This document shows, in pieces, positions 44,138-64,000 of a DNA stretch of 64,000 nucleotides. Both the position numbers and the translations under genes were made by a program. The notes beneath the pieces are model-generated. The model worked only from the letters and a program-made list of their open reading frames with translations. It was not told the origin of the DNA and did no database searches. The stretch comes from Myxococcaceae bacterium (lineage in GTDB: Bacteria; Myxococcota; Myxococcia; Myxococcales; Myxococcaceae). The stretch spans positions 15,892 to 79,891 of the forward strand of contig JBKQJL010000083.1 of NCBI GenBank assembly GCA_052147975.1, read 5' to 3'. How positions within the stretch are numbered: position 1 is the first letter of the stretch; every line of letters starts with the position of its first letter.

Positions 44138-45523
44138 CTACAAGGCTCGGCGTTTCACCGTGCGGGAATAGCTCAGTGGTAGAGCATCGCCTTGCCAAGG
44201 CGAGGGTCGAGGGTTCAAATCCCTTTTCCCGCTCCTCCAAGCCTCGGTAACGCCGGGGCTTTTTTCTTGGTCCGCAGCTCCTGACTCCGCTTTCGCCGTT
44301 CCCGTCAACATCCTGTCAACAACGCGCTGCGGTACAAGGTGCCCAACCGCGATGGGCATGCTGTTCGCCGCCGCGCGCAGCCTCGTCTTCTCCACGTGCG
44401 TGTAGACCTCCGCCGTCAGCCTGGGGTCGCTGTGGCGAAGAATCTTCTGAGCTTCAGCGAGTGGCACGCCGGCGACGTTGAGCAGCGACGCCGTCGAGTG
44501 TCGCAAGTCGTGCCAGCGGACTGGCCGAACCTGAGCCTTCGGCCAGAGAAGAATTCCATGCGTCGGACACCGGCGAGGCGCGCGATCCGGATGCGCTTCC
44601 TCGTGCCGACACGGTTGACCCTTTCGCCCCCGACAGCGGTGCATGTAACCGAGGACAATGTCGGCACGGGCCAGGGCGCGCCGGAGGACGTGCTGCAGCT
44701 TGATGTCCACCTTCATCATCTTCCCATCAGTGCCTGGAAAGACCAGGTCACTCGGGGAACCGTCCATTGCCGCCTGGAGAAACGGCACGAGCGCTTCCGG
44801 AATCGGCAAGACGTCGCTGTGGCCGCCTTTCGTCGTCGTCCGCCCCCAGCTCGCCTCCACCGCTAGTTCTCGCCGCTCGAGGTCGACAGACGTCTTTCGT
44901 AAGGCAGCGAGTTCACCGCGACGAAGCCCGAGGTACACGGCGCAGGCGAAGAGAGAGCGCCACCGGGGGTCCAAGGCTGCCATCACCGGCTCGACCTCCT
45001 CGGCGCGGAGGTAGTGGTGGGAGGCCCGCTTCGACTCCCTCCGGTGGTCCGTGTCCTGCGCCGGATTCTTTCCCGTCCAGCGGCCAGCTTTTCGCGCTCG
45101 ATTGAAGACCGTGATGAGGGCGCGTCGGAGCTTGTTGACGGTGGCTGGAGAGAGGTCTGAGAGCTTCGCCTGCAAGAAGGCCTCGATTCTCCCGGTGGTT
45201 ACCTGTGAGAGACGGAGCTCACCAAGGTTGCCTCCGACGAGATGCTTACGGGCGGCCGCTCCGGTCTTCCCTGCCCATGCATGCTGCGAGACGTACGTGT
45301 TGAGCCACCACTCGACAAGTTCGCCGAGCGTCTCGTTGCGTGGCGCCGCCGTCTCTCCGTTGCGAATACGTTCCGCTTCTTGCTCGGCTTGGGCGGCGAG
45401 CCGTTTCGCTTGCAGCTTTGACGTCCCCGGCTCTGTCGGGCGCTGAACCTGTTTCCCGGTGTGCCCCAAGAAGCTGATGTACCAGCGCCCCGGACGTTCG
45501 GGCCTCTCGAAGACGTACGCCAT
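44138..45523 (-). CDS. Tyrosine-type site-specific integrase; its 3' end reads antisense through tRNA-Gly (hybrid junction ORF)
   Basis: Catalytic residues are present: R in YLGLRRGEL, HxxR in WHDLRHS, and H..Y in LRHSDPRLTAEVYTHV (Tyr at aa 374). Amino acids 431-454 (SGKRDLNPRPSPWQGDALPLSYSR) are the antisense translation of the tRNA. The stop lies 22 nt beyond the tRNA 5' end. Confidence 0.9.
   Translation of the reverse strand: MAYVFERPERPGRWYISFLGHTGKQVQRPTEPGTSKLQAKRLAAQAEQEAERIRNGETAAPRNETLGELVEWWLNTYVSQHAWAGKTGAAARKHLVGGNLGELRLSQVTTGRIEAFLQAKLSDLSPATVNKLRRALITVFNRARKAGRWTGKNPAQDTDHRRESKRASHHYLRAEEVEPVMAALDPRWRSLFACAVYLGLRRGELAALRKTSVDLERRELAVEASWGRTTTKGGHSDVLPIPEALVPFLQAAMDGSPSDLVFPGTDGKMMKVDIKLQHVLRRALARADIVLGYMHRCRGRKGQPCRHEEAHPDRAPRRCPTHGILLWPKAQVRPVRWHDLRHSTASLLNVAGVPLAEAQKILRHSDPRLTAEVYTHVEKTRLRAAANSMPIAVGHLVPQRVVDRMLTGTAKAESGAADQEKSPGVTEAWRSGKRDLNPRPSPWQGDALPLSYSRTVKRRAL
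44162..44233 (+). tRNA. tRNA-Gly (anticodon GCC)
   Basis: Hand-folded cloverleaf. The acceptor stem GCGGGAA pairs with TTCCCGC. The D-arm is GCTC-AGTGGTA-GAGC. The anticodon arm is TCGCC-TTGCCAA-GGCGA, with GCC at positions 34-36. The T-arm is GAGGG-TTCAAAT-CCCTT, the discriminator is T, and CCA is not encoded. Confidence 0.92.
44241..44266 (+). terminator. Intrinsic terminator-like hairpin downstream of tRNA-Gly
   Basis: GCCTCGG-TAACG-CCGGGGC forms a 7-bp stem with one G-T wobble. It is followed directly by TTTTTTC. Confidence 0.6.
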
Positions 45524-45532
45524 ATGTCGAGC

Positions 45533-45745
45533 CTAGCCTTCCCTCGTGACGCTGCTGACAGAGGGGAGGTGGCCAGGACGCTGACGAAGCGCCCAGGCGC
45601 GAACCTCCTCAGGCACGAATCGTCTGCAGCGCCCGAACATGACGGAAGGCAGCTCGCCGCCCTGCGCTCGGAGCGACACCCACGACTTTGAGACCCCAAA
45701 GAAGCGCTGCACATCCTTCGTCGTCCAGAACGGCTCCGTGTTCAT
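45533..45745 (-). CDS. Excisionase / AlpA-type helix-turn-helix DNA-binding protein
   Basis: 70-aa ORF 9 nt upstream of the integrase. WTTKDVQRFFGVSKSWVSLRAQGGELPSVMFGRCRRFVPEEVRAW fits the excisionase-family HTH_17 pattern. Confidence 0.75.
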   Translation of the reverse strand: MNTEPFWTTKDVQRFFGVSKSWVSLRAQGGELPSVMFGRCRRFVPEEVRAWALRQRPGHLPSVSSVTREG

Positions 45746-45915: not shown

Positions 45916-46827
45916 TCAAAGCAGGTTCATGTCGACCGGGAGCCCCGCGTCCTTCATCTCCCTCGCCAGTTTCAGTGGCCACGCTCCGTCATAGGGAGTG
46001 TAGACAACACCCAGGATGTCAGAGGGCAGGTCGACCACTCCGCGATGGAGCACGAAGACTTTTGAGCGACCAATTCGCCCGTAGAAGTATCCCAGCTCAA
46101 GGACGACGTTCTGTCGCGCTCTCTGCTTCGGTGTTGCGATCTTGTCCTTTGCCTCTCCCAAGTCGTCGTCCGTGAGAAGAACCACGGCAAACGCCACTTC
46201 CGCCGCGTGCTGCTCTAGCTTCTCGAAAATGAGCCTGCCCCGATTCGGCATCTCGTGAAGGATGATCGGCTCAAGCTTCAGCCGCTCGAGGAGCCGAGCA
46301 ACTTCCTGCTTCAGAGCGTTGTCGTGCCCATGGACGATAAACACCTTCCTCGACGCCAAGGCAGACGACGCGGGCGGCGTTCCTGTCTCGGGCTGAGTAG
46401 CGGGCGGTTCTCCGTAGAGATCTAGTTGCTCCAGGACACTCCGAAGGTTGTTGAGTTTTTGCTCCAGGCTCTTGCGAAGCGTGTCGTGCTGCAGGATGTC
46501 AGTGATCCCGCTCCCTGGCCCTCCGAACTCGTAATCGCCTGCATCGAAGACAACTGAAGCCGGTCCTGCGGTGTCGAAGGAGAATGCAGCGTTGGTATCG
46601 GTGAAGAGCTGCCGCAAAAGCTCCAAGTTCCTCGCGGACCAGCGGTCGTACTCGGCCTTGACGTTGTTCCGGGATTCGGGCGTGCTCGATTGACGCGCAC
46701 GGTTTAGTAGAGCCGCTCCGGAATCGACGCCAGCGGTCAGCTGTTTGCGCGCTTCTTCTCGTGAGCGGCGGAGCCTCGTAGGCTCCTCGTTTGCCACGGT
46801 GTCTCCTTTGCGCCCGCGTTTCGCCAT
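45916..46827 (-). CDS. TIR-like (CAP12/PycTIR-type, COG4271-like) nucleotide-binding domain protein with an uncharacterised helical N-terminal domain
   Basis: The C-terminal ~150 aa carries KVFIVHGHD, EPIILHE, FAVVLLTDDD and ARQNVVLELGYFYGRIGRSKVFVL. I recognise these as the hallmark strands of the bacterial TIR-like effector domain. The N-terminal ~135 aa is helical and has no domain I can name. Confidence 0.7.
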   Translation of the reverse strand: MAKRGRKGDTVANEEPTRLRRSREEARKQLTAGVDSGAALLNRARQSSTPESRNNVKAEYDRWSARNLELLRQLFTDTNAAFSFDTAGPASVVFDAGDYEFGGPGSGITDILQHDTLRKSLEQKLNNLRSVLEQLDLYGEPPATQPETGTPPASSALASRKVFIVHGHDNALKQEVARLLERLKLEPIILHEMPNRGRLIFEKLEQHAAEVAFAVVLLTDDDLGEAKDKIATPKQRARQNVVLELGYFYGRIGRSKVFVLHRGVVDLPSDILGVVYTPYDGAWPLKLAREMKDAGLPVDMNLL

Positions 46828-46905
46828 TTGCCCGAGGCTACTGCAAAAGCAGCCTTCGACCCGAGGGCGGCGCGGCGCGAGCAGTCGCCACCGGGGCAGC
46901 GGCCG

Positions 46906-47946
46906 CTAGTCGTCCGGAAATAGCTCGGAGGCGATGCCAATCAGGTCTCGGTCGTAGAGCATCGTGCAGCGCTGGTGCAGGTCGCCGTCGTGAGTAATCA
47001 GGGTTCCGCAACGGGCGCCGGCGCCTACGATGTTCGCGTCCATCCAGTCATTGCGGTCGGTTTTGAGAGCGCCGATTTCAGGGTCCAGCTTCTTTCTCTC
47101 CAGCATCGGAACCGTCTCCAACACGTCCCGAAGCGTTCCGAGTACGGCCCAAGTCCAGCACGACAGATAGTCCTGGTAGTGCGCCTCCGCGTAGGCCACC
47201 TCAGCTTCAACTCGGCGAGGGTTCCAGCCGTAGTCTTTGCAGACAGCCCACAGCATTGCTCGAGCTGCTATTAGTGCGTGCGGCGCCCGGAAGTCGGCAA
47301 GCAAAGCCCGGCCTTCCGCGAGCAGTTTGGGGTCCTTCGCACGATTCTCCTGCCACTTAGCCGACATGCGTTCCATCGCCGGCCGGTGCCGCCTTAGGAA
47401 TTCGTTGTACTGGTCGAGAGCAGCCTGCATAACTGGCGCCCCGTCGAGGCTTCCGGTTCGAGCGACAAGCAGCAGTTCGGAGGACAAGCTGTCGAGTGGC
47501 CACGTGTCCATTGTCCGACGCCGCTCCTTAAGCTCTCGACGGTGTGCGTTCGCAACCAGATCCAGCACGTGCAGCCTCTCCCGAACCTCCGCATCGATGT
47601 GCAACAAGGTCGACACGACAGCTCCAAGTCTTCCGTCCGAAGGCGTGCGAAGGAGCTCGTTCAACGTGTCGACCGCTACCCAGCAGTTGCCCTTCACCTC
47701 GATGAGCTTGTTAATTCTTCGGATTAGGCGCCGTCGGGTGGGGGCGTCGTCCTTCACGAAGCTGATGACGGAAGTGTCGAGGAGAACGTCGGATTTCAGC
47801 GTGATCGTGGCGATAGACGGCAGATGAGGGCTGTCGTAGCCGGGCAGCTTGGTGCCTTCGGTGATGGGAACCGTCGAAAGCACGATCACCCGGTCCTTAA
47901 TCATTCCGGCCGGCTTCGGAGGCTTCGCTGAGCGCTTTGCAGCCAC
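46906..47946 (-). CDS. PIN-like nuclease-fold protein with a ~190-aa helical insertion (hypothetical)
   Basis: The acidic PIN-type motifs are split. DVLLDTSVISF and VAVDTLNELL lie near the N-terminus. DWMDANIVGAGARCGTLITHDGDL lies near the C-terminus. The gene is 78 nt upstream of, and co-oriented with, the TIR-like gene. The fold call rests on motifs only. Confidence 0.5.
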   Translation of the reverse strand: MAAKRSAKPPKPAGMIKDRVIVLSTVPITEGTKLPGYDSPHLPSIATITLKSDVLLDTSVISFVKDDAPTRRRLIRRINKLIEVKGNCWVAVDTLNELLRTPSDGRLGAVVSTLLHIDAEVRERLHVLDLVANAHRRELKERRRTMDTWPLDSLSSELLLVARTGSLDGAPVMQAALDQYNEFLRRHRPAMERMSAKWQENRAKDPKLLAEGRALLADFRAPHALIAARAMLWAVCKDYGWNPRRVEAEVAYAEAHYQDYLSCWTWAVLGTLRDVLETVPMLERKKLDPEIGALKTDRNDWMDANIVGAGARCGTLITHDGDLHQRCTMLYDRDLIGIASELFPDD

Positions 47947-48229
47947 CCGACGCCTCTATCGGGCCTCCCTGACGGAGGGCCAAGGTGACGACGGAGGCGT
48001 GCACCGACAAGAAGCCCGACCGGCGTATGGATTCCTCTGGTGCCGCGCTGCGAAACCCGGCGCGCCAGCTGAACTGCGCTGGCACGCGGCTTTCGCTTGG
48101 TCGCGCGGCACCCATAGAGAGCCCCGCAATACACCACCGCGCTCCGCGGCGGTGTCCCTCACCGCGCCGGGCTGACGCCCTCTCTGGCGAGCGCGGTGAC
48201 GGACACCGCCCTCTGTCAGGAGCGGTACC

Positions 48230-48796
48230 ATGGCGAAGTCAGCGCAAGGTTTAAGCAGCGCGGCAAAGAGGGTTCCCCGCATCTACGTGGCCTCACTGTC
48301 GGACTACAACGCCGGCCGGCTTCATGGCGCCTGGCTGGAGGCGACGGACATTCAACAGGTACGCGCGGGAGTCACCGCCATGTTGAAGGCCTCCCCCGGC
48401 GGCGCCGCTGAGGAGTACGCCATCCACGACTTCGAGGGCTTCAGCCGCTACCTGCCGTCCGAGTTCGCGGACCTCGAGCTAGTCTGCGCCATCGGCGCCG
48501 CCATTGTGGAGCACGGCACAGTCTTCACAGCCTACCTCGAGCACGTCGCCTTCCCGACGGACGCGGAGCTGGTCCCCGAGCTGGTGGCAGGCTTCACCGA
48601 GTGCTACCACGGCGCCTACGAAAGCGTCGAGGCCTGGGCCGAGCAATACCTCGAAGACACGGGCCTTCTACAGCAAGTGCCTGAGTCGCTCCGCGGATAC
48701 CTCGACTTGGAGAGCTGGGCCGACGACGCCGAGCTCAACGGCGACATCTTCTCTGTCGAGTTCGAGGACGAACTCCACATGTTCTTAGAACGCTAG
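48230..48796 (+). CDS. ardA: Antirestriction protein ArdA
   Basis: Strong resemblance to the Tn916 Orf18-type ArdA. Compare RIYVASLSDYNAGRLHGAW, EEYAIHDFEGF and QYLEDTGLLQQVPESLRGYLDLESWADDAELNGDIF. The protein is highly acidic. Confidence 0.85.
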   Translation: MAKSAQGLSSAAKRVPRIYVASLSDYNAGRLHGAWLEATDIQQVRAGVTAMLKASPGGAAEEYAIHDFEGFSRYLPSEFADLELVCAIGAAIVEHGTVFTAYLEHVAFPTDAELVPELVAGFTECYHGAYESVEAWAEQYLEDTGLLQQVPESLRGYLDLESWADDAELNGDIFSVEFEDELHMFLER

Positions 48797-48873: not shown

Positions 48874-49746
48874 ATGGCGATGCGTCACAGACCCATCTTT
48901 GTGGCCTGCGCAATCCTGTCGTGCGCGTGCTCGCATGGAACCCCGCAGGACACAGCCGGCGCTCCGACGGAGACCCCTGCGAGCTGTGCTGTGCGTCCTG
49001 GCGCCAATACCGGGCGACTTCCACTCCTAGTTTTCTCCGAGCTCAACCCATGGCTTGAGGTCATCAACTCCGATGTGCCCTCAATCGTCGTCTATGCGGA
49101 TGGGGAGCTGATTTTAGCCAGGAAGGGACTCCGCCACGTGAAGTTGGAGCTCTCTGCTCTGACGCGATTCCTAGAGAGCCTGCAACTCGGGCGGCTCCGC
49201 GATCTTCCAGAGTACACCAGCACGATGCATGTGACCGACCTGTCGACGACGGTTGTCATCTGGCGCGACGGGGACCGAATGCGATCCGTGTCTGTCTACG
49301 GTCCCGTGAAGCGAAATCCAGAGGAGGAGAAGTGGGCGGACCGCAGCATCCCGATCTCCGCATCGCCGGAGGCGTTCGTCTCAGTTGTCGAACGATTGCG
49401 CGCGTTTGATCCCGACGGCGCGACGACGTGGACGCCCGAGGTCGTTGAGCTCATGCTCGGCCCATTCGACCATAGCCGTCAGAAGCCGATCGCCTGGCCC
49501 GCGAACTGGCCGGGATGGGACTCTCCGGGCGCGAAGAGGCCCTCCACCATCGGCGGGAACCCATACCTCCCAGTGGCTGGAGAGATCTTCATCGACGGGC
49601 GTTGCTGGAATCAGGCAATCGAGCTCAAGAAGCGACTCGACGCCTACACCGCAGCTCTGCTTGAGGGACGCATGTACTCCCTCTCCATTCGTCCACTTCT
49701 GCCGGCCGAGGAGGAATGGAAGAAGTCGCTCCCGCGGGCGCATTGA
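48874..49746 (+). CDS. Hypothetical lipoprotein
   Basis: Lipobox signal (IFVACAILSCAC). 290-aa ORF in island-type composition with no domain I recognise. Confidence 0.55.
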   Translation: MAMRHRPIFVACAILSCACSHGTPQDTAGAPTETPASCAVRPGANTGRLPLLVFSELNPWLEVINSDVPSIVVYADGELILARKGLRHVKLELSALTRFLESLQLGRLRDLPEYTSTMHVTDLSTTVVIWRDGDRMRSVSVYGPVKRNPEEEKWADRSIPISASPEAFVSVVERLRAFDPDGATTWTPEVVELMLGPFDHSRQKPIAWPANWPGWDSPGAKRPSTIGGNPYLPVAGEIFIDGRCWNQAIELKKRLDAYTAALLEGRMYSLSIRPLLPAEEEWKKSLPRAH

Positions 49747-51573: not shown

Positions 51574-52524
51574 ATGCCTGTGCTACCCGAAGCCCCCGAT
51601 CCAGCCGCACCACCGCCAACTTGGCGCATTGCGCTCGAACTCATCGAGCCCAATCCCCATCAGCCAAGACGCGAGTTCGATGCAGCCCCTCTTTCAGAGC
51701 TCGTTGAAAGCATCCGGGAGCATGGGTTACTGCAGCCGGTCTCGGTCAGGCGGATTCCGGGAGGCAGGTACCAACTCATTGCTGGGCACCGTCGGCTAGA
51801 GGCTTACCGTCGGCTGCTAGCCGAGGCCCGAGGCAAGGAGGGTAGCGAGCGTTTCGAGACCATCCCCGCCCACGAGAAGTTTGATGTTACCGACGAAGAG
51901 ATGGCGCTCTTCGCCTTGGTCGAGAACCTTCAGCGCGACGATCTTTCGCCCCTGGACGCAGCTTTGGGTCTCTCGAGATTCCAGGTGGCGAATGAGCTTT
52001 CGACCGAGGCGCTGGCGCAGCGCACCGGCCTCGAGGTCGATCGGGTGAAGCGCCTGCTGCGGCTCGCGCGGGCGCCCAAGGTTGTCCAGGACGCATGCCA
52101 CGAGGGCGTTCTCATCGAGCAGGTAGATGAGCAGGGGACAGTGAAGCTTCTTGCCTCCGGCAACGCCAAACGCGAGCGAGCCCGCCTGGACCTCATGGCG
52201 GCGCTCGAGTTCGCGAGGGCCCATTCGAGCATCGCCAAAACGGCGCCGAAGAAGGCCGACGAGCGGACCGCAAAGGCTATCGAGCGGGCGCTGTCCGAAC
52301 GCTGGACCCTGAGGCGCGTACAGACTTTTTGCCGAGGTGTCGTTTCGGGTTCGCAGCTCGATGGGAGTACCGGGGAAGGAGCTGTCGCAGCCGCGCGCGT
52401 AGCGCTGTTCACCGACGGAGCCGAGCTACGCATCCGTCGAAGTCAGCTCGCGAAGGCTGCACCCGGACAGCGAAGCGCCTTGGTCGAAGTACTGAGGGCG
52501 CTCTTAGCAGAGCTCACGGCGTGA
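51574..52524 (+). CDS. ParB/Spo0J-like partition or KorB-like DNA-binding protein
   Basis: The ParB N-domain is present (IELIEPNPHQPRREFDAAPLSELVESIREHGLLQPVSVR ... LIAGHRRLEAYRRL ... LVENLQRDDLSPLD). It is followed by an HTH (LSTEALAQRTGLEVDRVKRLLRLARAP). Confidence 0.85.
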   Translation: MPVLPEAPDPAAPPPTWRIALELIEPNPHQPRREFDAAPLSELVESIREHGLLQPVSVRRIPGGRYQLIAGHRRLEAYRRLLAEARGKEGSERFETIPAHEKFDVTDEEMALFALVENLQRDDLSPLDAALGLSRFQVANELSTEALAQRTGLEVDRVKRLLRLARAPKVVQDACHEGVLIEQVDEQGTVKLLASGNAKRERARLDLMAALEFARAHSSIAKTAPKKADERTAKAIERALSERWTLRRVQTFCRGVVSGSQLDGSTGEGAVAAARVALFTDGAELRIRRSQLAKAAPGQRSALVEVLRALLAELTA

Positions 52525-52956: not shown

Positions 52957-54102
52957 ATGAGTGAGGAGATTGAGAGGGGGGAAGTGTGGACGAGCGAGTA
53001 CGCGGTCACGGCGAAGCGCGGTGGAGGAGTGAAGCTGACGGATAGAGACAGAGATGTCCTCGGGCTCCTGGTGCTGGCGAGGTACCTGACAGCAGCCCAG
53101 GTGTACCGCCTGGCGTTTGCTGGCAAGCACCCCTCGCTGGCGTACCGTCGTCTGCTGCGGCTCTCGCGGGAAGACGGCCAACCAGCCTTTGTCCGCCAGC
53201 GCTTCTTCCGCGACTACGACGGCAATCGCCGCGCCGTTTGGGCGCCAACGCCATACGCTCTGAAGGCGGCGCTGTCGCGCTCAGCTTCGCTCCCCGAGTT
53301 GCCAAAGCACGACGTGGGCGCGCAGTTCCTGGAGCACCTGCTCCAGCTTAACGAATTGCTGGTCGCCCTCTGGCAAGGCGGGCCGCGGTGTCCACGGGCG
53401 ACGCACCCGGCGTTCCGGTGGGTCCCGTCGGACAGGGTGCGTCTCGTCTGGGGGGAATGGGAGATGCGAGAGGGTCGTCGGCAACAGCGTGTCATCCAGC
53501 CGGATGCTGTCCTTGAAGTCCCGCGGCAGAAGCGTCGGTACTTTCTCGAGTGCGAGATGGGAACGCACACCATTGTGCCGAACCAAGGTAGCTCGCCCGG
53601 AGCTACCGTCGCCAAGGCGGACCGCTACCAGCGGTTTCTCGGCGACGCCTCCGGCCTGGACGGCCGCCGCACGCATTACGACACCCAGTACCCTGACGGG
53701 TTTGCGCCGGACGTTCTCTTCTTGGTGCTGAACCGGGGACGAGCGGACTCCGTCAACGCGGCGCTCGTCTCGTGGCGCAAGAAGACCGGGGCCCGGAGGC
53801 CAACGGCGATGCGGACCCTTACGTTCGAGGAAGCCACGGTGGAGCTACGCCAACTCGCTGGGCTTCCGGCACTTGCGCACGCAACCAGCGTCGAGCACGA
53901 GCGCGCCGGATGGGGAAAGGAGACCTACCTCGTTGCCGAGGACGTGGCGGTACTGCGTCAGTATGTCCAGGAGTCGGTCGGCTCTATCAAACGGGCGCGG
54001 GCCGTGTTCCGGCAGCTGGGGCGTCCAGACTTGCCCGAGTACCCCGTGAATTACGAGCGCGCGTATGCGCTGCTCGACCGCATCGCTCATGAGACGGGAT
54101 GA
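52957..54102 (+). CDS. Replication-relaxation family protein (Replic_Relax-like)
   Basis: The N-terminal winged-helix pattern LTDRDRDVLGLLVLARYLTAAQVYRLAFAGKHPSLAYRRLLRLSREDG matches my memory of PF13814-type proteins of conjugative or mobilizable elements. Only a moderate call. Confidence 0.6.
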   Translation: MSEEIERGEVWTSEYAVTAKRGGGVKLTDRDRDVLGLLVLARYLTAAQVYRLAFAGKHPSLAYRRLLRLSREDGQPAFVRQRFFRDYDGNRRAVWAPTPYALKAALSRSASLPELPKHDVGAQFLEHLLQLNELLVALWQGGPRCPRATHPAFRWVPSDRVRLVWGEWEMREGRRQQRVIQPDAVLEVPRQKRRYFLECEMGTHTIVPNQGSSPGATVAKADRYQRFLGDASGLDGRRTHYDTQYPDGFAPDVLFLVLNRGRADSVNAALVSWRKKTGARRPTAMRTLTFEEATVELRQLAGLPALAHATSVEHERAGWGKETYLVAEDVAVLRQYVQESVGSIKRARAVFRQLGRPDLPEYPVNYERAYALLDRIAHETG

Positions 54103-54235: not shown

Positions 54236-54739
54236 TCAAGAGCTGTCCCCCCTTCCGCTCTCACGGGAAGCGACCCAGCAGTTGCGCCAGCGGACAACTT
54301 GCCATTTCCCGCTCTCTTTTTGCAGGTCCAGGTCACAACCCCGCTGCATGAAGAAGCCGATACTGACACTGGCTGCTGCTCCCACGACGATGGCCTGGTC
54401 AGCGATGAGGAGTCGCTGTCCCGGGGACCCGTCGCACTCGGCGCGATTCCCCGACACTCTGAAGGGACGGGCGCCGAGGGTCTCCAAGAGGCGCTTCGAC
54501 GGCGCTCCGTCATCCACTTGAAGGCATATTAGGCCAGTCATGTGTTTCGTCACCTCGTTGATGGCCGCCACGAGCACCAAATCGCGGTCAGAGTCGACGC
54601 TGCTCGTGGATGGGGCTGTAAGCGAAGCAGTCGCGCACCCGACGAGAAAGACCAGGCTAATCGCAACGAGCCGCGCGGTTTGCGTCTCCATGGGGAACCG
54701 GCTCGGGCGCGCGGCGCCCGAGCCGAATCGCGACGTCAC
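54236..54739 (-). CDS. Hypothetical lipoprotein
   Basis: It overlaps the stop of the upstream activator gene by 4 nt. The lipobox is LVFLVGCAT. The start may be the internal METQTARL (54691). Confidence 0.55.
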   Translation of the reverse strand: MTSRFGSGAARPSRFPMETQTARLVAISLVFLVGCATASLTAPSTSSVDSDRDLVLVAAINEVTKHMTGLICLQVDDGAPSKRLLETLGARPFRVSGNRAECDGSPGQRLLIADQAIVVGAAASVSIGFFMQRGCDLDLQKESGKWQVVRWRNCWVASRESGRGDSS

Positions 54740-56298
54740 AAAGACTCCCGTGACACCCCGAGCTCGGCCATTTTTCGTTTAAGGGTGTTGAGGGCGACGC
54801 CGAGAGCCCGCGCCGCGTGCGCCTTGTTGCCCTTTGTGGCGAGCAAGGCGGCCTGGACGTCGTCTCGGGTCAAGTCGCTGGGGCGCTTCCTCGTCTGGGT
54901 CTCTGACGCGCCAGCGGCGCCGCGGAACCCATCGGGCGTGCCGGCCTCAGGCGGACGGCTGAAGGCCGCCGCGCGGGCTTCGAGGTACTCCCGAAACTCG
55001 CTGACGCCGAGCACGAGCCGTCCTGCAGGGCCTCCCTCGAACAGCTTCTCGGCGTGGGCGCGCTCCACCACCGTGTGGACGGTGGCTTCCAGCTCCCGCA
55101 CCTCCCCGGGCCACGGCTGCTCGGCAAGGAATGCCAGCGCCTTCTCGGACACTTGGGCCTGCACGTGTTGAGGTCCAGTCGCCAGCGCGGAGAGGAAGTG
55201 CCCGACAAGCACGGGGACGTCCTCTTGGCGCTCCCGCAGGGAGGGGAGGTGGATAATTTCTCCCCGCGCCAGACGCTGGGCCAGGTCCGGCCGCAGTGGG
55301 GACTCCTGAAGCCGTTGCTTCGAGGCCGAGATGAGGCGAAATCTCGGCCGAGGCAGCCCTCTGGACGTCGGGGCCCCGAGCGGCACCAGGTCCTCGGTGC
55401 CCTCCAGGAGGTCCAGAAGGAAGACCTGGGCCTCTGTCACCAGGGACTCAACCTCGTCGAGGAAGAGTGTCCCTCCGTCGGCCTCGAAGAGACGTCCTAT
55501 TCGCTTCTCCGTCGCACCGGTGAACGCGCCCCGGAAGTGGCCGAGCAACTCGCTATGGAGATGCGTGCGGTCCGGCGGGAGGGCGCCGCAGTTGAGGTAC
55601 ACGAAGCGGCCCCTGGCCCCGCTGAGTTCGTGAATGAGGTGGGCAGCGTACATTTTCCCCGTGCCGGAGGAGCCCAGGAGGAAGACGGGCCTGTCCACAC
55701 GACTGGCCCGGCGGATTGCCTTCTCCAGCTCTCTTGCGGCAGCAGACTTCCACTCGCTCGCCGTTGGGGAAGCTGCGTGCGCGGATGGCATTTCGGCGAG
55801 AAACTCAAGGCGGTTGTCCGTTTCCCCAAAGTGAAGCGCCACGCCGGCTGCCACGCCCACCGGACCGCCGCGCGGCAGTTTCCTCGGAGGGCCCTCGCCG
55901 GAATGAAGGAAAGTCCCGTTGGCACTTTCGTTGTCGCGAAGGGCCCAGGCGGAAACCTCCGGCACGTAGAAGAGGAGGGCGTGCTGCCTGGAAACGGCCT
56001 CGTCCTCGAACCACACGTCCGCCTTCTCGGCGCGTCCAAGGGTGTATACGCGGCGGGTGTCGAGCGGAATGGCCACCGAGGGCCGGCCGTGGCGAAGAAT
56101 GCGAAGAGCCCTCGGGCAGGGTCCCTTGAGGAGCCATTTCTCCGGGGGCACGCGCAGTGCCCGCCCGGGTGAGTCATCGCCAGGGCCCGCCGTTGGGACG
56201 GCGTCCGGGGAGAGAGTGTCGTGGCCTTCCACACTGGGCATACACGGGCCTGCCGAGTCTGAGAATGCCAGGGACAATACCCCGGGGCCTCCGCCCAT
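54736..56298 (-). CDS. FHA-domain sigma-54-dependent transcriptional activator (bacterial enhancer-binding protein)
   Basis: FHA region (YTLGRAEKADVWFEDEAVSRQHALLFYV ... NESANGTFL). AAA+ sigma-54 interaction domain with Walker A (LLGSSGTGKMYAA), the GAFTGA loop and Walker B (GGTLFLDEVESL). Fis-type HTH at the C-terminus (GNKAHAARALGVALNTLKRKM). Confidence 0.88.
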   Translation of the reverse strand: MGGGPGVLSLAFSDSAGPCMPSVEGHDTLSPDAVPTAGPGDDSPGRALRVPPEKWLLKGPCPRALRILRHGRPSVAIPLDTRRVYTLGRAEKADVWFEDEAVSRQHALLFYVPEVSAWALRDNESANGTFLHSGEGPPRKLPRGGPVGVAAGVALHFGETDNRLEFLAEMPSAHAASPTASEWKSAAARELEKAIRRASRVDRPVFLLGSSGTGKMYAAHLIHELSGARGRFVYLNCGALPPDRTHLHSELLGHFRGAFTGATEKRIGRLFEADGGTLFLDEVESLVTEAQVFLLDLLEGTEDLVPLGAPTSRGLPRPRFRLISASKQRLQESPLRPDLAQRLARGEIIHLPSLRERQEDVPVLVGHFLSALATGPQHVQAQVSEKALAFLAEQPWPGEVRELEATVHTVVERAHAEKLFEGGPAGRLVLGVSEFREYLEARAAAFSRPPEAGTPDGFRGAAGASETQTRKRPSDLTRDDVQAALLATKGNKAHAARALGVALNTLKRKMAELGVSRESL

Positions 56299-56307
56299 GC
56301 GTCAAGA

Positions 56308-56344
56308 TTGCCTGTCAGAATTGCCAGTCAAAGCTGACTGGCAA
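56308..56344. promoter_or_regulatory. Triple TTGCCNGTCA motif (direct repeat plus a perfect 10-bp palindrome) in the divergent activator/coupling-protein intergenic region
   Basis: TTGCCTGTCA (56308-17), GAA, TTGCCAGTCA (56321-30), AAGC, TGACTGGCAA (56335-44). The last two copies are exact reverse complements of each other. Confidence 0.6.
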
Positions 56345-56470
56345 GGCCTACGCGGTGGCGGAGGCCCACCGGCGGGTGTCGGCGACGAGCGTTGGGGCGC
56401 GAGACGCTCTGGAAGCAGCGGAAAGCCGTGCCGGGGCGTGCCGTCACGGCGTTTGCAATGCCCACCAGGC

Positions 56471-58282
56471 ATGCAAACCACACCTGCTTCCCGTCTTGTC
56501 CCGCGTTTTCTGCTGCTACTCGCCGTTGTCGCGTTTTTCAGCCACGTCACCCTCAGCTACCAACTGCAGCTGGCGCGGGGCCCGCTTCGAGGTCGGCCCG
56601 TCGGACGGTTTTTGGAAACCTTCGCGGTGCTGGACCGGCTGGCGATGCGCTACCCCGAGGTCGCGCTGTCGGCTGCGGCCAGTGCCCTCTTTCTGCTGTT
56701 TATTCTCTACCGAGGCTGGGTTGTCCTCAGGAACAAGCGCTTCACCGCCAAGGCCACTGGCATGGCGGACGAGCTCGAGGGACGCCGCTTCCCGACCCAT
56801 ACCTTCCTGGCCCTCGAATACATGGTCAACCGCGGCGGTCGCACCTTCGTCGGCCTCACGCCCAGGCGGCGAGTCCTGCCGCCCTGGGGGCTTTCCTGGC
56901 GCCCCGTGTACCTCTCCCAGGAGGAGAGGAGCATGCACCGTCATGTACTGGGGAAGACGGGCTCCGGAAAGACTAGCGGCATTCTCTGGCCGGAAGTCCT
57001 GCAGGACGCCCTGGACGGGAAGGGCGTCCTCGTCATTGACGCCAAGGGGTCCGACGAGAATGCCAAGACAATGCGAAGCATTGCGCACATTTCCGGGCGC
57101 CCGAAGGACTTACGTCTCTTCGCGTTGCCTGCGTGGAACCGGCCGCAGCTCTTCTCCCACGCCTACAACCTCGTCCACGTGAAGCCACGGACGCCGGGCG
57201 ACGCAGGTGGGGACGTCATGGCGATGGCCGAGCGCGTCTTCTCAGTCTTCAACCTCGGGGACAACGCCTACTTCAACACCCAAGCCTACCTGGCCTTCGG
57301 CCGCATTTGCAGGGTGCTGCACGGCTTCGAGAGTTCCAACGGGTTTGGCCTGCCCTTTAACCTACGAGACGTCTCTGTCTGCTTGCGTGGGCTGTCCTCG
57401 CTCGACTCGGAATGGGGCGCGACATTCCAGCAGTGTCTCGCCCTTTCTACGGACCGCGAAGCGGTCGAGGAGCTGCGGGCTCAGGTCCTTTCGCTGGGGA
57501 GGGATGTAGGCCAGTGCCTTTCGGGCCTTCTAGGCGCAGTGGACAAGTTTCAATCGCCCCTCGTCAATGCCTATGAACCCGAGATTTTTTTCGAGGACGT
57601 CCTGGAAAGAAATCGGCTCGTCTACGTGCAGCTTCCGTCCAACCTCTTCAAGCTACAGGCGCCGGCCTTAGGGAAATGCATGCTGATGGACCTTCAGCAG
57701 GAGGCGTCGCTCCGGCAGGTATTCCGTGAAAGGCGGAACCAGCGGCCGTTCTCGGTATGCGTGGATGAATTCGGGACATTCGCAGACATTTCAATCATCG
57801 ACTCGCTGAATAAGCTGCGAGACGCGCACATTCAATTCACGCTGTCCCACCAGTCGATGGCGGACCTCGAAATTGTGTCGAAGGAGTTCGCCCAGGCGGT
57901 ATGGGACAACACGCGAACGAAGGACATTCTCGCGCAGGACAACCCGGAGCTCTGCGAGCGTATGGCGAAGAGCCTCGGGACAATGCCGCGCCTCGAGAAC
58001 ACGCTTCAGCAGGAGCGCAGCTTTCTGTCCGCCATCCTGCCTACGGGCTTGCTCTCGACGCGGGCGGTCGAGGCTTACCGACTCCACCCCAACCGGCTCA
58101 AGTCGCTAGCCTCGCGAGGGCAGGGGTACCTCTTCGCTTCGCGGCCCAAAGGAATGACGGCGTTGCCCATCGCCTACGGCAGCCTCGGGCAGCTCCCGGT
58201 TCCGTCGGCGCACTCGCTGCGCCGAATAGACCAAGCAACGGCACCGGGGCTGCGCCTGTACGAGCGCTTCGTGAGTTGTTGA
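56471..58282 (+). CDS. TraD/VirD4-like type IV coupling protein ATPase
   Basis: N-terminal TM helices (FLLLLAVVAFF, ALFLLFILY), Walker A (VLGKTGSGKTS) and VLVIDAKGS are present. The Walker B/TraG-D_C-like region is FSVCVDEFGTFAD ... IQFTLSHQSMADL. The start is set at ATG 56471 because the track ORF's upstream part overlaps the activator gene. Confidence 0.78.
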   Translation: MQTTPASRLVPRFLLLLAVVAFFSHVTLSYQLQLARGPLRGRPVGRFLETFAVLDRLAMRYPEVALSAAASALFLLFILYRGWVVLRNKRFTAKATGMADELEGRRFPTHTFLALEYMVNRGGRTFVGLTPRRRVLPPWGLSWRPVYLSQEERSMHRHVLGKTGSGKTSGILWPEVLQDALDGKGVLVIDAKGSDENAKTMRSIAHISGRPKDLRLFALPAWNRPQLFSHAYNLVHVKPRTPGDAGGDVMAMAERVFSVFNLGDNAYFNTQAYLAFGRICRVLHGFESSNGFGLPFNLRDVSVCLRGLSSLDSEWGATFQQCLALSTDREAVEELRAQVLSLGRDVGQCLSGLLGAVDKFQSPLVNAYEPEIFFEDVLERNRLVYVQLPSNLFKLQAPALGKCMLMDLQQEASLRQVFRERRNQRPFSVCVDEFGTFADISIIDSLNKLRDAHIQFTLSHQSMADLEIVSKEFAQAVWDNTRTKDILAQDNPELCERMAKSLGTMPRLENTLQQERSFLSAILPTGLLSTRAVEAYRLHPNRLKSLASRGQGYLFASRPKGMTALPIAYGSLGQLPVPSAHSLRRIDQATAPGLRLYERFVSC

Positions 58283-62600: not shown

Positions 62601-64000
62601 ACGATGGGCCGTGTGCAGATGCGTACCGACTCGTTCGGACAGACCTACTATACATACAACTTCCGCGGTCAAGTGACGGCCGAGCTGCGCGTTAGAAACG
62701 GGACCTCGTGCACGGCGCTGCCGGTATTGCCGCTCGGCTTGTCGTGCGAAGCGCCTAGCGACGACAACCATCTCAATACTGTTTACGACTATGGCTCAAC
62801 GGGAGTACTGAACAATATTCAGTACCCACATGGACGGGTTGTTCGTTTTGGATATCCATCGTTTAACGGGGACTTGGAGCAGCCGGGTTCAGTCTCCGCA
62901 GACGTCCTGAATGGGTCGTCGTGCGCGACGGTCGCGCTATTAAGCTACATTACGTGGGAACCCTACGGAGGGGTCCGCGGCTACCAGGTCAGCTCGCCGA
63001 CTGCGTCGACGACACTCGGTGCGGTTGAGTACCTACTCGGCGACGCTAGTACCGTCGCCACTCTGACGAGCTGCCCTGCGTCGCGTCCCTCGAGTTCGAA
63101 CTCGGACCACTCCGGTCGCCTGCGCGCTCTCTGGGTTTCCACGGGGGGGTACACACCCTCTAGCCCTACAGGAACGGGCAACATCTTCGCGCGGCAATAC
63201 ACCTGGCGGGGCGACCAGCTTGTGACGCAAGCGAGTTGCGTACTGCAAAGCGCCGGAACGCCTGTCACCGAGAACTTCTTCAGCAGCGGTGGCGTGGCTG
63301 GCTACAACGCTCGGCTCCAGCTAGAGCACGCATCGCGGCCCAGCGGCGGCATGAAGGCCACCGGCGGCGCCTGGGGAGAGCGGGACTACAGCTACGACTT
63401 ACGCGGCAACCGCCTAACGGAAACCACGGACTGTTGGTCATGGGCCGAAAAGTACGACACCTTAAACCCGTTGGACGACCAGCTCATGAGCCGTGCGGTA
63501 ACGGGCTCCTCGTGCTCGGCGACGTGCCAAGGGTTCCCCTTTCTGACCACGAACTACAGCTACGACGCGGATGGGCGTATGGCGACGTTGACCACGGCCT
63601 CCGATTCAGTGGGCCCTCCGCTAAGCCTCTCTTTCAATGCCAGCATTGACGGTCAAGCCGCCGTAGGCGCGGTGTACAAGGCCATCACAGTGAATGGCTC
63701 GACCTATGAATACTACTACGACGCTGACGGCCGGAGACGCTTGAAGGCGTATCCCGACGGAGAGCAGGACGAGTATTTCTACGGGCCTAGCGATGAGATC
63801 ATCGAGGATCACGAGAATTGCGCTGGATGCGTGCCTTCAAGCAACACGCTGGACGAATATGTCTGGCTCGGCGGACATCCGGCTATCCTTTTTCGAGGAA
63901 GTCTCAACGCCTCTGGGGGTCGCAACCCAGACTTCAGTGGAACCTGTGCCGACACGGGGAATTGCGGCGTTTACTTCCCGGTCACTGACTACTTGGGGAA
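59604..64000 (+). CDS. RHS / YD-repeat polymorphic-toxin family protein (3' end outside window)
   Basis: This frame is absent from the ORF track because it has no stop before 64000. I translated it by hand. It has a signal peptide (MKRLSRDWRVWAGLAGLGLVVLLLGPKPAAA). It also has many YD repeats (YSYDSRGRVLSV, YDARGHV, YGYDDFGNLLTV, YAYDAQGHIV, YDYDVLGRPL, YSYDLRGNRLTE, YSYDADGRMATL, YYYDADGRR) and DEYVWLGGHPA and TDYLG motifs. A/T-ending codons are visibly frequent. Confidence 0.88.
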   Translation, partial: MKRLSRDWRVWAGLAGLGLVVLLLGPKPAAAHSFLGSLQRLLLAQSSDPPETDTPQPTLVSVAGPSSTGGLQLSDMTGRYEKTDLVIQNSTGPFVLKRTFRTSLGYWKQPQDYFVTQPQWWTNLTSNVQFMSYANDGITCVGSPLNPDCVRSPDYIVTDPDTGSFLNYYSNGNPQVPQQGFQIPVDAANQDKLYVNASNQDGGISSLILFTPSNHYYYAEWDGAHTYYLSRVEDIKYTAVDSGVTVANISYSSPGVISSVTTADGVVLVFNNTGGNLQSVSIDGGTVAAYTYSNGLLNTVTYDDGTGEEYAYGTNSNGFAATTLTGRKIISYVIDAGSGAGEGAVSSQTTEETTLSLLGWWNDTAYSCSGGSGTDYCYQNTLSDPAVTAGDGTWSVADLQTAYTLSVPTNASVGTGRQTSLVTRFCSGSCSGLLASSGQAWWFWPGVNYAYGQSAGNQPYAQSSMSENNAFTAYPNVRYAPSSVVPSDAGFLPPPEYPTILSGATNDGGAGAVSTQTRAYVYGGVGQPVQGYEQMVSTVQKPSPLGGNTTTYYNWDTTNNRLNSVVRVGQTAIDSSMSLSQQNIGTIYSYDSRGRVLSVQGPCFVASATQPTGCASSNSPAVVYTYYPPSGTGFTANRANTKTVCTGPLSGTPPNQTCPGLTTTYKSYDARGHVTDSVDANLVETISTYSGNLLLSTKVTATTVTDTTNYGYDGDQLQWVQHPTGMVDFTCYRVQAPNTPPGNCSTTLTASKFVYWKAKCSDTACTHRTESVAYQYLHGYVSQETYYDSMGQVRRVVRHDRDPRNRPTFDAVGDLSDTTDTTYSTRAMFDNDGNQISVGFPYNAPSVFCKQGGDTTTCAEMVPDGLDRLAKLTEPLVNAGASQEVVAYDSLGHVSSITYNSQKVIYGYDDFGNLLTVQAPWLANGGVGIIRYAYDAQGHIVIKETPAMAASGAEFLQYDYDVLGRPLDLKHYLSGYTTLWALAYDTPGGACPPQSSGAFTMGRVQMRTDSFGQTYYTYNFRGQVTAELRVRNGTSCTALPVLPLGLSCEAPSDDNHLNTVYDYGSTGVLNNIQYPHGRVVRFGYPSFNGDLEQPGSVSADVLNGSSCATVALLSYITWEPYGGVRGYQVSSPTASTTLGAVEYLLGDASTVATLTSCPASRPSSSNSDHSGRLRALWVSTGGYTPSSPTGTGNIFARQYTWRGDQLVTQASCVLQSAGTPVTENFFSSGGVAGYNARLQLEHASRPSGGMKATGGAWGERDYSYDLRGNRLTETTDCWSWAEKYDTLNPLDDQLMSRAVTGSSCSATCQGFPFLTTNYSYDADGRMATLTTASDSVGPPLSLSFNASIDGQAAVGAVYKAITVNGSTYEYYYDADGRRRLKAYPDGEQDEYFYGPSDEIIEDHENCAGCVPSSNTLDEYVWLGGHPAILFRGSLNASGGRNPDFSGTCADTGNCGVYFPVTDYLG

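Follow-up and report, generated by a model that had tools for sequence, protein, structure and literature searches.

A PDC-S35-type TIR gene and a rare PIN-like gene at the integrase end of a myxobacterial tRNA-Gly island

When two genes with the look of effectors lie side by side on a mobile element, do they form one defence system or do they only share an address? The question is raised by a stretch of 64,000 nucleotides (nt) from a Myxococcaceae bacterium (GenBank assembly GCA_052147975.1, contig JBKQJL010000083.1, positions 15,892 to 79,891), hereafter the window, in which two open reading frames (ORFs) follow each other in the same orientation on the minus strand. The downstream ORF (45916-46827) encodes a predicted TIR protein of 303 amino acids (aa) and the upstream ORF (46906-47946) a PIN-like protein of 346 aa. 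Both genes sit just inside an island, adjoining its excisionase (xis, 45533-45745) and integrase (int, 44138-45523) genes at a tRNA-Gly(GCC) gene (44162-44235). An earlier reading of this DNA, the original prediction, had proposed the pair as an undescribed two-gene defence module. Our results point elsewhere. With a probability of roughly two in three, the genes are independent single-gene cargo modules that came to lie side by side by chance at the integrase-proximal end of the element, because the two were never found together elsewhere.

Linkage of the two gene families

The local description given in the original prediction was borne out. In the spacer between the genes, a simple scan found no terminator-like or sigma-70-like promoter site, and the G+C content over both genes is ~0.61 versus ~0.70 for the chromosome. 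All of the peptides quoted from the two translations were recovered, namely KVFIVHGHD, FAVVLLTDDD, and ARQNVVLELGYF from the TIR gene along with DVLLDTSVISF, VAVDTLNELL, and DWMDANIVGAGARCGTLITHDGDL from the PIN-like gene. Likewise, neither a cyclase nor a cyclic-nucleotide sensor lies beside the two genes, nor does any antitoxin-sized ORF that is conserved. The G+C content at third codon positions (GC3) is 0.70 in the TIR gene and 0.73 in the PIN-like gene, compared with 0.81-0.87 in the flanking chromosomal genes. Neither measure of composition is informative for separating the histories of the two genes.

The pairing of the two families is not conserved. We surveyed the best 80 genome loci and 80 viral loci of the TIR family, each with 6-kilobase (kb) flanks, using a hidden Markov model (HMM) of the PIN-like family, and found no PIN-like gene within that distance at any of the 80 genome loci or the 80 viral loci. 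When each of 12 PIN-like loci was searched with the TIR HMM, none held a TIR-family gene. Furthermore, no other partner emerged for either family. No neighbour family occurred in more than 4 of the 80 TIR genome loci, and the neighbours of the PIN-like loci shared no family across loci. A PADLOC scan of the 140 ORFs nearest to TIR-family genes returned a scattered set of hits (prokaryotic Argonaute, type III methyltransferase, retron-type reverse transcriptase-protease and HEAT-ARM, mad2, SoFic, and other PDCs) together with four tandem PDC-S35 paralogues and no recurrent partner. The linkage across genomes that a two-gene module would imply was thus absent at the loci surveyed, and the claim of such a module is not supported.

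The closest homologue of each gene also has a different neighbour. For example, one PIN-like homologue (L001, 66% identical) lies beside AbiEi/AbiEii and ParE genes, with no TIR gene. Another (L002, 73% identical) occupies the same site in a related genome, marked by SLT, TPR, and CDP-OH-transferase genes, tRNA-Gly, and an integrase, with different island cargo and again no TIR gene. In a blastn comparison of the window with L002, similarity ran from 47973 to 46906 only, over the PIN-like gene and the 27 nt that precede it, ending at its stop codon, such that the shared DNA covers the PIN-like gene alone. A third homologue (L003, 49% identical) has an integrase fragment on one side and a HEAT-repeat gene on the other, and more distant members are found on Prim-Pol, resolvase, and RuvC elements; at the loci examined, the PIN-like family is always on mobile elements. 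On the TIR side, the closest homologue (L085, 48% identical) follows an unrelated gene of 216 aa on a related integrase/DUF6438 island. Two observations concern individual PIN-like loci. In L002 (8941-9987), an in-frame stop cuts the PIN-like gene into pieces of 263 aa and ~80 aa; either the gene has become a pseudogene or the stop is an error of sequencing. Downstream of the L001 homologue, a 184-aa ORF was considered as a partner and set aside; it has a wrong-frame-like composition and resembles neither the TIR protein nor the neighbours at other loci.

The TIR protein and the PDC-S35 family

On the evidence of sequence profiles and a structural model, we are confident that the downstream gene encodes a CAP12/PycTIR-type TIR protein. 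Pfam CAP12-PCTIR_TIR (PF10137) matches residues 161-280 at 3.1e-39 (134.1 bits, cut-off 24.7; profile positions 1-118 of 119). In the AlphaFold model (pLDDT [predicted local distance difference test] 81), three long helices with a pLDDT above 90 lead through a disordered linker into an alpha/beta domain that spans residues 161-293. The top Foldseek matches of this domain are the TIR-STING/Cap12 structures 9lmr, 9lmq, and 7un8 (E 8e-6 to 3.5e-4, probability 1.0), after which come the TIR domains of MyD88, SARM1, and SPARTA; DNPH1 and nucleoside deoxyribosyltransferases are also listed, at E ~0.03. In a profile comparison with the Protein Data Bank (PDB), the sole solved sequence relatives were Cap12 9lmq (4.7e-12), Cap12 7un8 (9e-8), and PycTIR 8jsj (4.3e-5). 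Among 35 aligned family members (alignment A2), the TIR half is invariant at FxVHG, E192, E202-K203-x-E205, D221-D222, RARQNV, E244-L-G, and P268-x-D270; written as motifs, the invariant set includes LLTxDD, RARQNV-x-x-ELG-x-F, and PSD, along with W283. In the profile alignments, the Glu of the NVVFEFG motif of Cap12 and PycTIR falls opposite the invariant E244. The original prediction had described such a domain behind a helical region that it could not assign, and that description holds. The N-terminal domain, in which W63 is invariant among the same 35 sequences, has no match in Pfam, NCBIfam, or the PDB and none to STING or cyclic-nucleotide-binding domains.

This gene is, by its profile matches, a new member of an already catalogued family of single-gene computational defence candidates, PDC-S35. 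Specifically, the PADLOC model PDLC05005 aligns at 7e-71 with residues 42-303 (profile positions 11-262 of 264), and the TIR half of the protein is also matched by another four PDC-S35 HMMs (6e-41 to 6e-64). The CBASS-TIR and PycTIR effector models of PADLOC score far below these, and PADLOC gave no ThsA or ThsB match. The protein is not a Cap12, since the NCBIfam Cap12 equivalogs reach only 46 bits against a cut-off of 450. That the TIR gene had already been catalogued as a single-gene candidate also counts against the proposed two-gene module; the PIN-like gene has no PADLOC match. PDCs are guilt-by-embedding candidates, defined computationally by their embedding in BREX, DISARM, or type I restriction-modification (RM) loci (Payne et al., bioRxiv 10.1101/2024.01.29.577857). 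We found no mention of PDC-S35 in the searchable literature, and the candidates that PMC12881386 put to the test did not include it.

The family has many members and is widespread. A word-indexed search returned more than 4286 relatives from many phyla, and in reference genomes 592 of the 599 pattern matches listed encode a relative of the TIR protein. The family is also present on 143 viral contigs, and the TIR protein has a PHROG family. The best relatives are ~290 aa long and 40-48% identical, and they cover 93-100% of the query; given this full-length coverage, the helical N-terminal domain plus TIR is a fixed architecture. When the N-terminal domain was searched alone, nothing was returned, a result limited by the word index, which cannot show whether the domain occurs alongside other effectors. 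At four of 80 TIR-family loci (L006, L011, L067, and L077), a second PDC-S35-type paralogue directly adjoins the first. One of these paralogues (L077, 4499-5668) has a longer and different N-terminal region, which suggests swapping of N-terminal domains within the family.

Comparison with characterised systems helps to frame how such a protein could work. Like other members of PDC-S35, the 303-aa protein matches PDLC05005 nearly end to end and has no conserved partner, as the "S" class implies; it differs in lying as cargo next to an integrase and not inside a BREX, DISARM, or type I RM locus. With Cap12/TIR-STING (7un8, 9lmq) and PycTIR (8jsj), which are its best structural and sequence matches, it shares the PF10137 clade and the Glu in NVV-x-E-x-G. 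By analogy, it likely also shares hydrolysis of nicotinamide adenine dinucleotide (NAD+) upon oligomerisation. In CAP12/Pycsar-clade TIRs and in the amoebal TirC, NAD+ hydrolase (NADase) activity needs the conserved Glu and filament formation or oligomerisation (bioRxiv 10.64898/2026.04.30.722052). Unlike Cap12 and PycTIR, the window protein has neither a STING nor a cyclic-nucleotide-binding domain, no cyclase gene adjoins it, and a three-helix bundle of no assignable family precedes its TIR domain. Lacking both a sensor domain and an adjacent cyclase, the gene is not a component of the cyclic-oligonucleotide-based system CBASS or of Pycsar.

We picture a one-protein mechanism only by analogy. 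The TIR domain would be an NAD+ glycohydrolase switched on by oligomerisation, as in TIR-STING, PycTIR, and TirC. The helical N-terminal domain would stand in for the nucleotide sensor of CBASS and Pycsar effectors, either holding the TIR domain off or nucleating its assembly on a phage-derived trigger, and the outcome would be NAD+ depletion and abortive infection from a single polypeptide. A functional analogue exists in Swarozyc, a DUF4062 TIR-like NADase that works with no signalling cyclase and switches on when it assembles directly with a phage protein, the portal (bioRxiv 10.64898/2026.05.01.722283). Swarozyc offers a precedent for the direct activation by phage that we propose for PDC-S35; it differs in that DUF4062 is not PF10137, and no homology to the TIR protein was detected.

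The PIN-like protein

Judging from its motifs and its predicted structure, the upstream gene probably encodes a divergent PIN-like nuclease in which a large helical insert is conserved. The AlphaFold model (pLDDT 86.8, predicted template modelling score 0.83) has a beta-alpha core that is broken by eight helices over residues 151-292. The original prediction of a split PIN protein was sound in its outline; the protein is best taken as a PIN core with conserved acidic residues, cut by a helical insert. The insert had been put at ~190 aa, whereas the secondary structure of the model gives ~140 aa, and the native sequence scores below the Pfam threshold (PIN, PF01850: 0.022, 15.8 bits, cut-off 23.6). 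When the insert was excised in silico, the match improved to 1.8e-4 and 22.6 bits over profile positions 1-116 of 120, just under the same cut-off. Six of 13 insert-excised family members match Pfam PIN, and PIN is the only family matched. The excised insert alone gave nothing significant in Pfam and has no detectable relatives.

Structural comparison points towards the PIN fold. The top six meaningful Foldseek matches in the PDB are all PIN domains: 2hww (SMG6), the VapC structures 6sd6, 9h6a, 3tnd, and 6ifc, and 3ix7. With the core divided by the insert, these matches are weak, at E 0.24-0.4 and probability 0.57-0.77 over ~90 aligned columns. The model has no full-length structural analogue in the PDB and nothing meaningful among the viral structures of BFVD. 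Against PDB sequences, the full-length and core profiles yielded chance helical matches only, with no VapC among them. An hhalign comparison of the core profile with Shigella VapC, whose sequence we verified as 3tnd_A (1.7e-85), gave P = 0.028; in that register, the Glu of NELL pairs with MELIY and NDxxDAxIAA pairs with FDQMIAGHA.

The conserved residues fall where a PIN domain would have them. The family alignment holds an N-terminal D-T/S-x-V (D57), a conserved Glu in x-E-L/M (E97), E138, and W264-T265. Its invariant C-terminal block, NDxxDAxIAAxGARCGxxITxDxxL, contains D300, D303, and D320. D57, in LLDTSV, is nearly invariant (D10 of the core alignment A4) and starts the pattern D[VI]L[LI]DTSV. 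The four acidic residues at canonical motif positions, a D-E-D-D set, are D57, E97, D303, and D320, to which E138 and D300 can be added. This order of acidic motifs is the classic PIN order of VapC toxins.

The family is also rare. A word search found three homologues among 5.8 billion clusters, and exhaustive HMMER over 1.84 billion representatives found 20 members, 13 of them at 1e-10 or better. Searches with the single protein and with a three-sequence alignment (A5) found no relatives in metagenome or viral contigs, and the protein has no PADLOC, NCBIfam, or PHROG match. It is a rare, unannotated PIN variant. A distant homologue, P0129 (L089, 5001-6221; 406 aa), carries an N-terminal extension of ~80 aa (…HQVLVRLNAADQKAVERVLAAYPEKARPTVAAYLREAV…) that looks ribbon-helix-helix-like by eye and, if it were so, would resemble the N-terminus of a fused VapB-type antitoxin. 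That reading has no support from Pfam. One public annotation starts the window gene at ATG 47904, giving 332 aa, and one calls a 72-aa ORF (47897-48115, minus strand) that overlaps the start of this gene. We rejected this ORF as an antitoxin, since it is matched at other loci only where it overlaps the PIN-like gene in another frame; it looks spurious.

The protein shares with VapC toxins (Shigella VapC, 3tnd) and SMG6-type PIN domains the acidic residues in their canonical positions and motif context. As the original prediction held, its architecture is not that of VapC. The fold is broken by the insert, the protein is ~2.5 times the size of VapC, no VapB-type antitoxin gene adjoins it, and all sequence scores lie under family thresholds. 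A VapBC type II module consists of a compact toxin of ~130 aa plus an adjacent, co-transcribed antitoxin gene, whereas here a 346-aa protein stands alone, and at no locus does a conserved small ORF flank the gene. In FEN/XPG-type 5' nucleases, an inserted helical element that gates the substrate parts the catalytic halves of a PIN-like core. The analogy is one of layout only, with no FEN-family structure among the Foldseek matches of the model. The protein would be a Mg2+-dependent RNase (or DNase), and its insert would act in cis as a regulatory or substrate-gating module in place of a separate antitoxin. More tentatively, it might be the founding member of a new class of nuclease modules on integrative elements, each a single self-contained gene, in which the insert with its W-T motif senses or gates and replaces an antitoxin or sensor. 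It is just as tentative that this class would be an undescribed architecture for abortive infection or addiction.

The island and the competing explanations

The predicted genes mark the island as an integrative conjugative or mobilisable element that is inserted at tRNA-Gly and has its defence and anti-defence cargo close to the integrase (Table 1). A second copy of the tRNA-Gly 3' end, which would mark attR, was not found in the window, so the element runs past position 64000 and is at least 19.8 kb long. Of the island's defence genes, the HEC-04-like gene is the best supported, and it also has the lowest GC3 on the island (0.58). HEC-04 is a single-gene ATPase-TOPRIM system whose wild type protects against phage, whereas Walker A and TOPRIM-site mutants do not (bioRxiv 10.1101/2024.01.29.577857). 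Other features of the island deserve mention in their own right. Over 44138-44235, the last ~30 residues of the integrase ORF (…KRDLNPRPSPWQGDALPLSYS…) are the antisense translation of tRNA-Gly, and a public annotation (L086) keeps the 461-aa integrase call. At 54736-56298 on the minus strand lies a regulator with forkhead-associated (FHA), sigma-54 activator (AAA+), and Fis-type helix-turn-helix (HTH) domains, which is unusual cargo for a mobile element. The L085 element has a DUF6438-like gene (1243-2064) near its integrase, as does the window island, and the two may share a backbone with exchanged cargo.

Table 1. The two genes, their domains, and other features of the island, in window positions
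Feature	Position	Strand	Basis or remark
Tyrosine integrase	44138-45523	-	3' end overlaps tRNA-Gly 44162-44235 (+)
HTH_17 excisionase	45533-45745	-	Adjoins the TIR gene
PDC-S35 family member of 303 aa (predicted): three-helix bundle at the N-terminus, CAP12/PycTIR-type TIR domain at the C-terminus	45916-46827	-	PADLOC, Pfam
TIR domain, residues 161-293	45949-46347	-	Alignment A2, AlphaFold alpha/beta domain, Foldseek, profile matches
N-terminal helical domain, residues ~17-135; helices 23-46, 50-74, 107-133; invariant W63	46423-46779	-	AlphaFold, alignment
Spacer between TIR gene and PIN-like gene	46828-46905	-	Exactly 78 nt
Orphan PIN-like gene, 346 aa from GTG 47946	46906-47946	-	ORF; AlphaFold
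PIN core, C-terminal half, residues 293-346: invariant D300, D303, D320	46909-47070	-	Alignments A1 and A4, stitched core versus Pfam, hhalign
All-helical insert, ~140 aa, residues 151-292; conserved W264-T265	47071-47496	-	AlphaFold secondary structure
PIN core, N-terminal half, residues 48-150: D57, E97 (NELL), E138	47497-47805	-	Alignments A1 and A4, Pfam partial match 54-146, hhalign register
ArdA antirestriction gene	48230-48796	+	Pfam ArdA 4.4e-33
DUF6438-like gene	48874-49746	+	Divergent from TIR and PIN-like genes
HEC-04-like ABC ATPase-TOPRIM, 508 aa	49924-51450	+	PADLOC HEC-04 1.8e-45, profile positions 20-489 of 494
ParB	51574-52524	+	Marks a mobile element
Replic_Relax protein	52957-54102	+	Marks a mobile element
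TraG/TraD-type coupling protein	56042-58282	+	Marks a mobile element

Could the two genes still be a genuine defence operon that was assembled recently in this lineage? One protein might sense, for example through the PIN-like insert, while the TIR NADase executes, or both effectors might be under one control. We consider this improbable, given the lack of co-occurrence in 160 TIR loci and 12 PIN-like loci, the other neighbours of the nearest homologues, the L002 homology block that stops at the PIN-like stop codon, and a TIR family that acts as a single-gene unit across phyla. What speaks for an operon is the arrangement itself, with co-oriented genes and no terminator- or promoter-like signal in the gap between them, along with their similar GC3 and the presence in the same cargo region of a defence gene of a validated type, HEC-04. 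In addition, a same-strand ORF lay within 150 nt upstream in 27 of 72 TIR-family loci (a crude ORF-based count), so TIR genes can sit in operons. The further proposal that the PIN-like gene and the PDC-S35 NADase have here become coupled in a new operon of two effectors is a slim prospect, less likely than the stand-alone PIN-like class.

The remaining alternatives concern one gene at a time. Element addiction is a serious alternative to phage defence for the PIN-like protein, which would then be a toxin that stabilises the mobile element, with an unrecognised small ORF, an RNA, or its own insert or N-terminus as the antitoxin. The VapC-like acidic set and motif context agree with this, as does the constant association with integrase, resolvase, or Prim-Pol elements and the location next to AbiE, ParE, and HicB modules. 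The 72-aa ORF and the N-terminal extension of P0129 could be taken in the same sense, yet the former has matches only in the overlapping frame and the latter finds no backing in Pfam. Furthermore, no small ORF is conserved on either side of the gene, and a protein of ~300-350 aa with a conserved insert is unlike a classical VapC; on balance we regard an addiction toxin as unlikely. A final alternative is that the TIR-like protein does not deplete NAD+ at all and instead makes a signal nucleotide for an unlinked effector, in the manner of Thoeris, or acts on nucleosides or nucleotides like nucleoside 2'-deoxyribosyltransferase and DNPH1. Such enzymes do appear in the Foldseek list, and TIR phylogeny is not always predictive of chemistry. 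Nevertheless, the nearest relatives in both sequence and structure are the NAD+-depleting Cap12/TIR-STING and PycTIR, there is no conserved partner gene to read a signal, and PADLOC has no ThsA/ThsB match, which together make a different chemistry very unlikely.

Independent cargo modules thus remain our preferred explanation, and some of our own observations weigh against it. The genes are co-oriented and closely spaced, with no predicted terminator or promoter between them, and they may be co-transcribed and hence in some degree functionally coupled in this lineage; nothing indicates mutual dependence. Their similar GC3 gives no case for separate origins. The PIN-like sample is small, with ~7 independent contexts and several loci on short contigs. 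Each measure of the PIN fold is weak alone, whether the sub-gathering Pfam score, the Foldseek E values, or the hhalign P value. Finally, NADase activity in the TIR family, nuclease activity in the PIN-like family, and phage defence in both remain predicted. A role in defence or abortive infection is plausible for each gene alone, as far as sequence comparison can tell.

What do two independent modules mean for the biology of these families? The claim of a new two-gene system fails, and what remains is a myxobacteria-type island with several independent defence and anti-defence genes, which is ordinary for mobile elements. The very rare PIN-like family would illustrate how, in nature, an insert can control a PIN core from within, in place of an antitoxin. 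Should PDC-S35 proteins prove to be single-polypeptide NADases in which the N-terminal domain replaces the sensor, they would show that an effector clade has been rewired from activation by a signal to direct activation by phage. Because the PDC-S35 family is large and present in many phyla, such a mechanism would apply widely.

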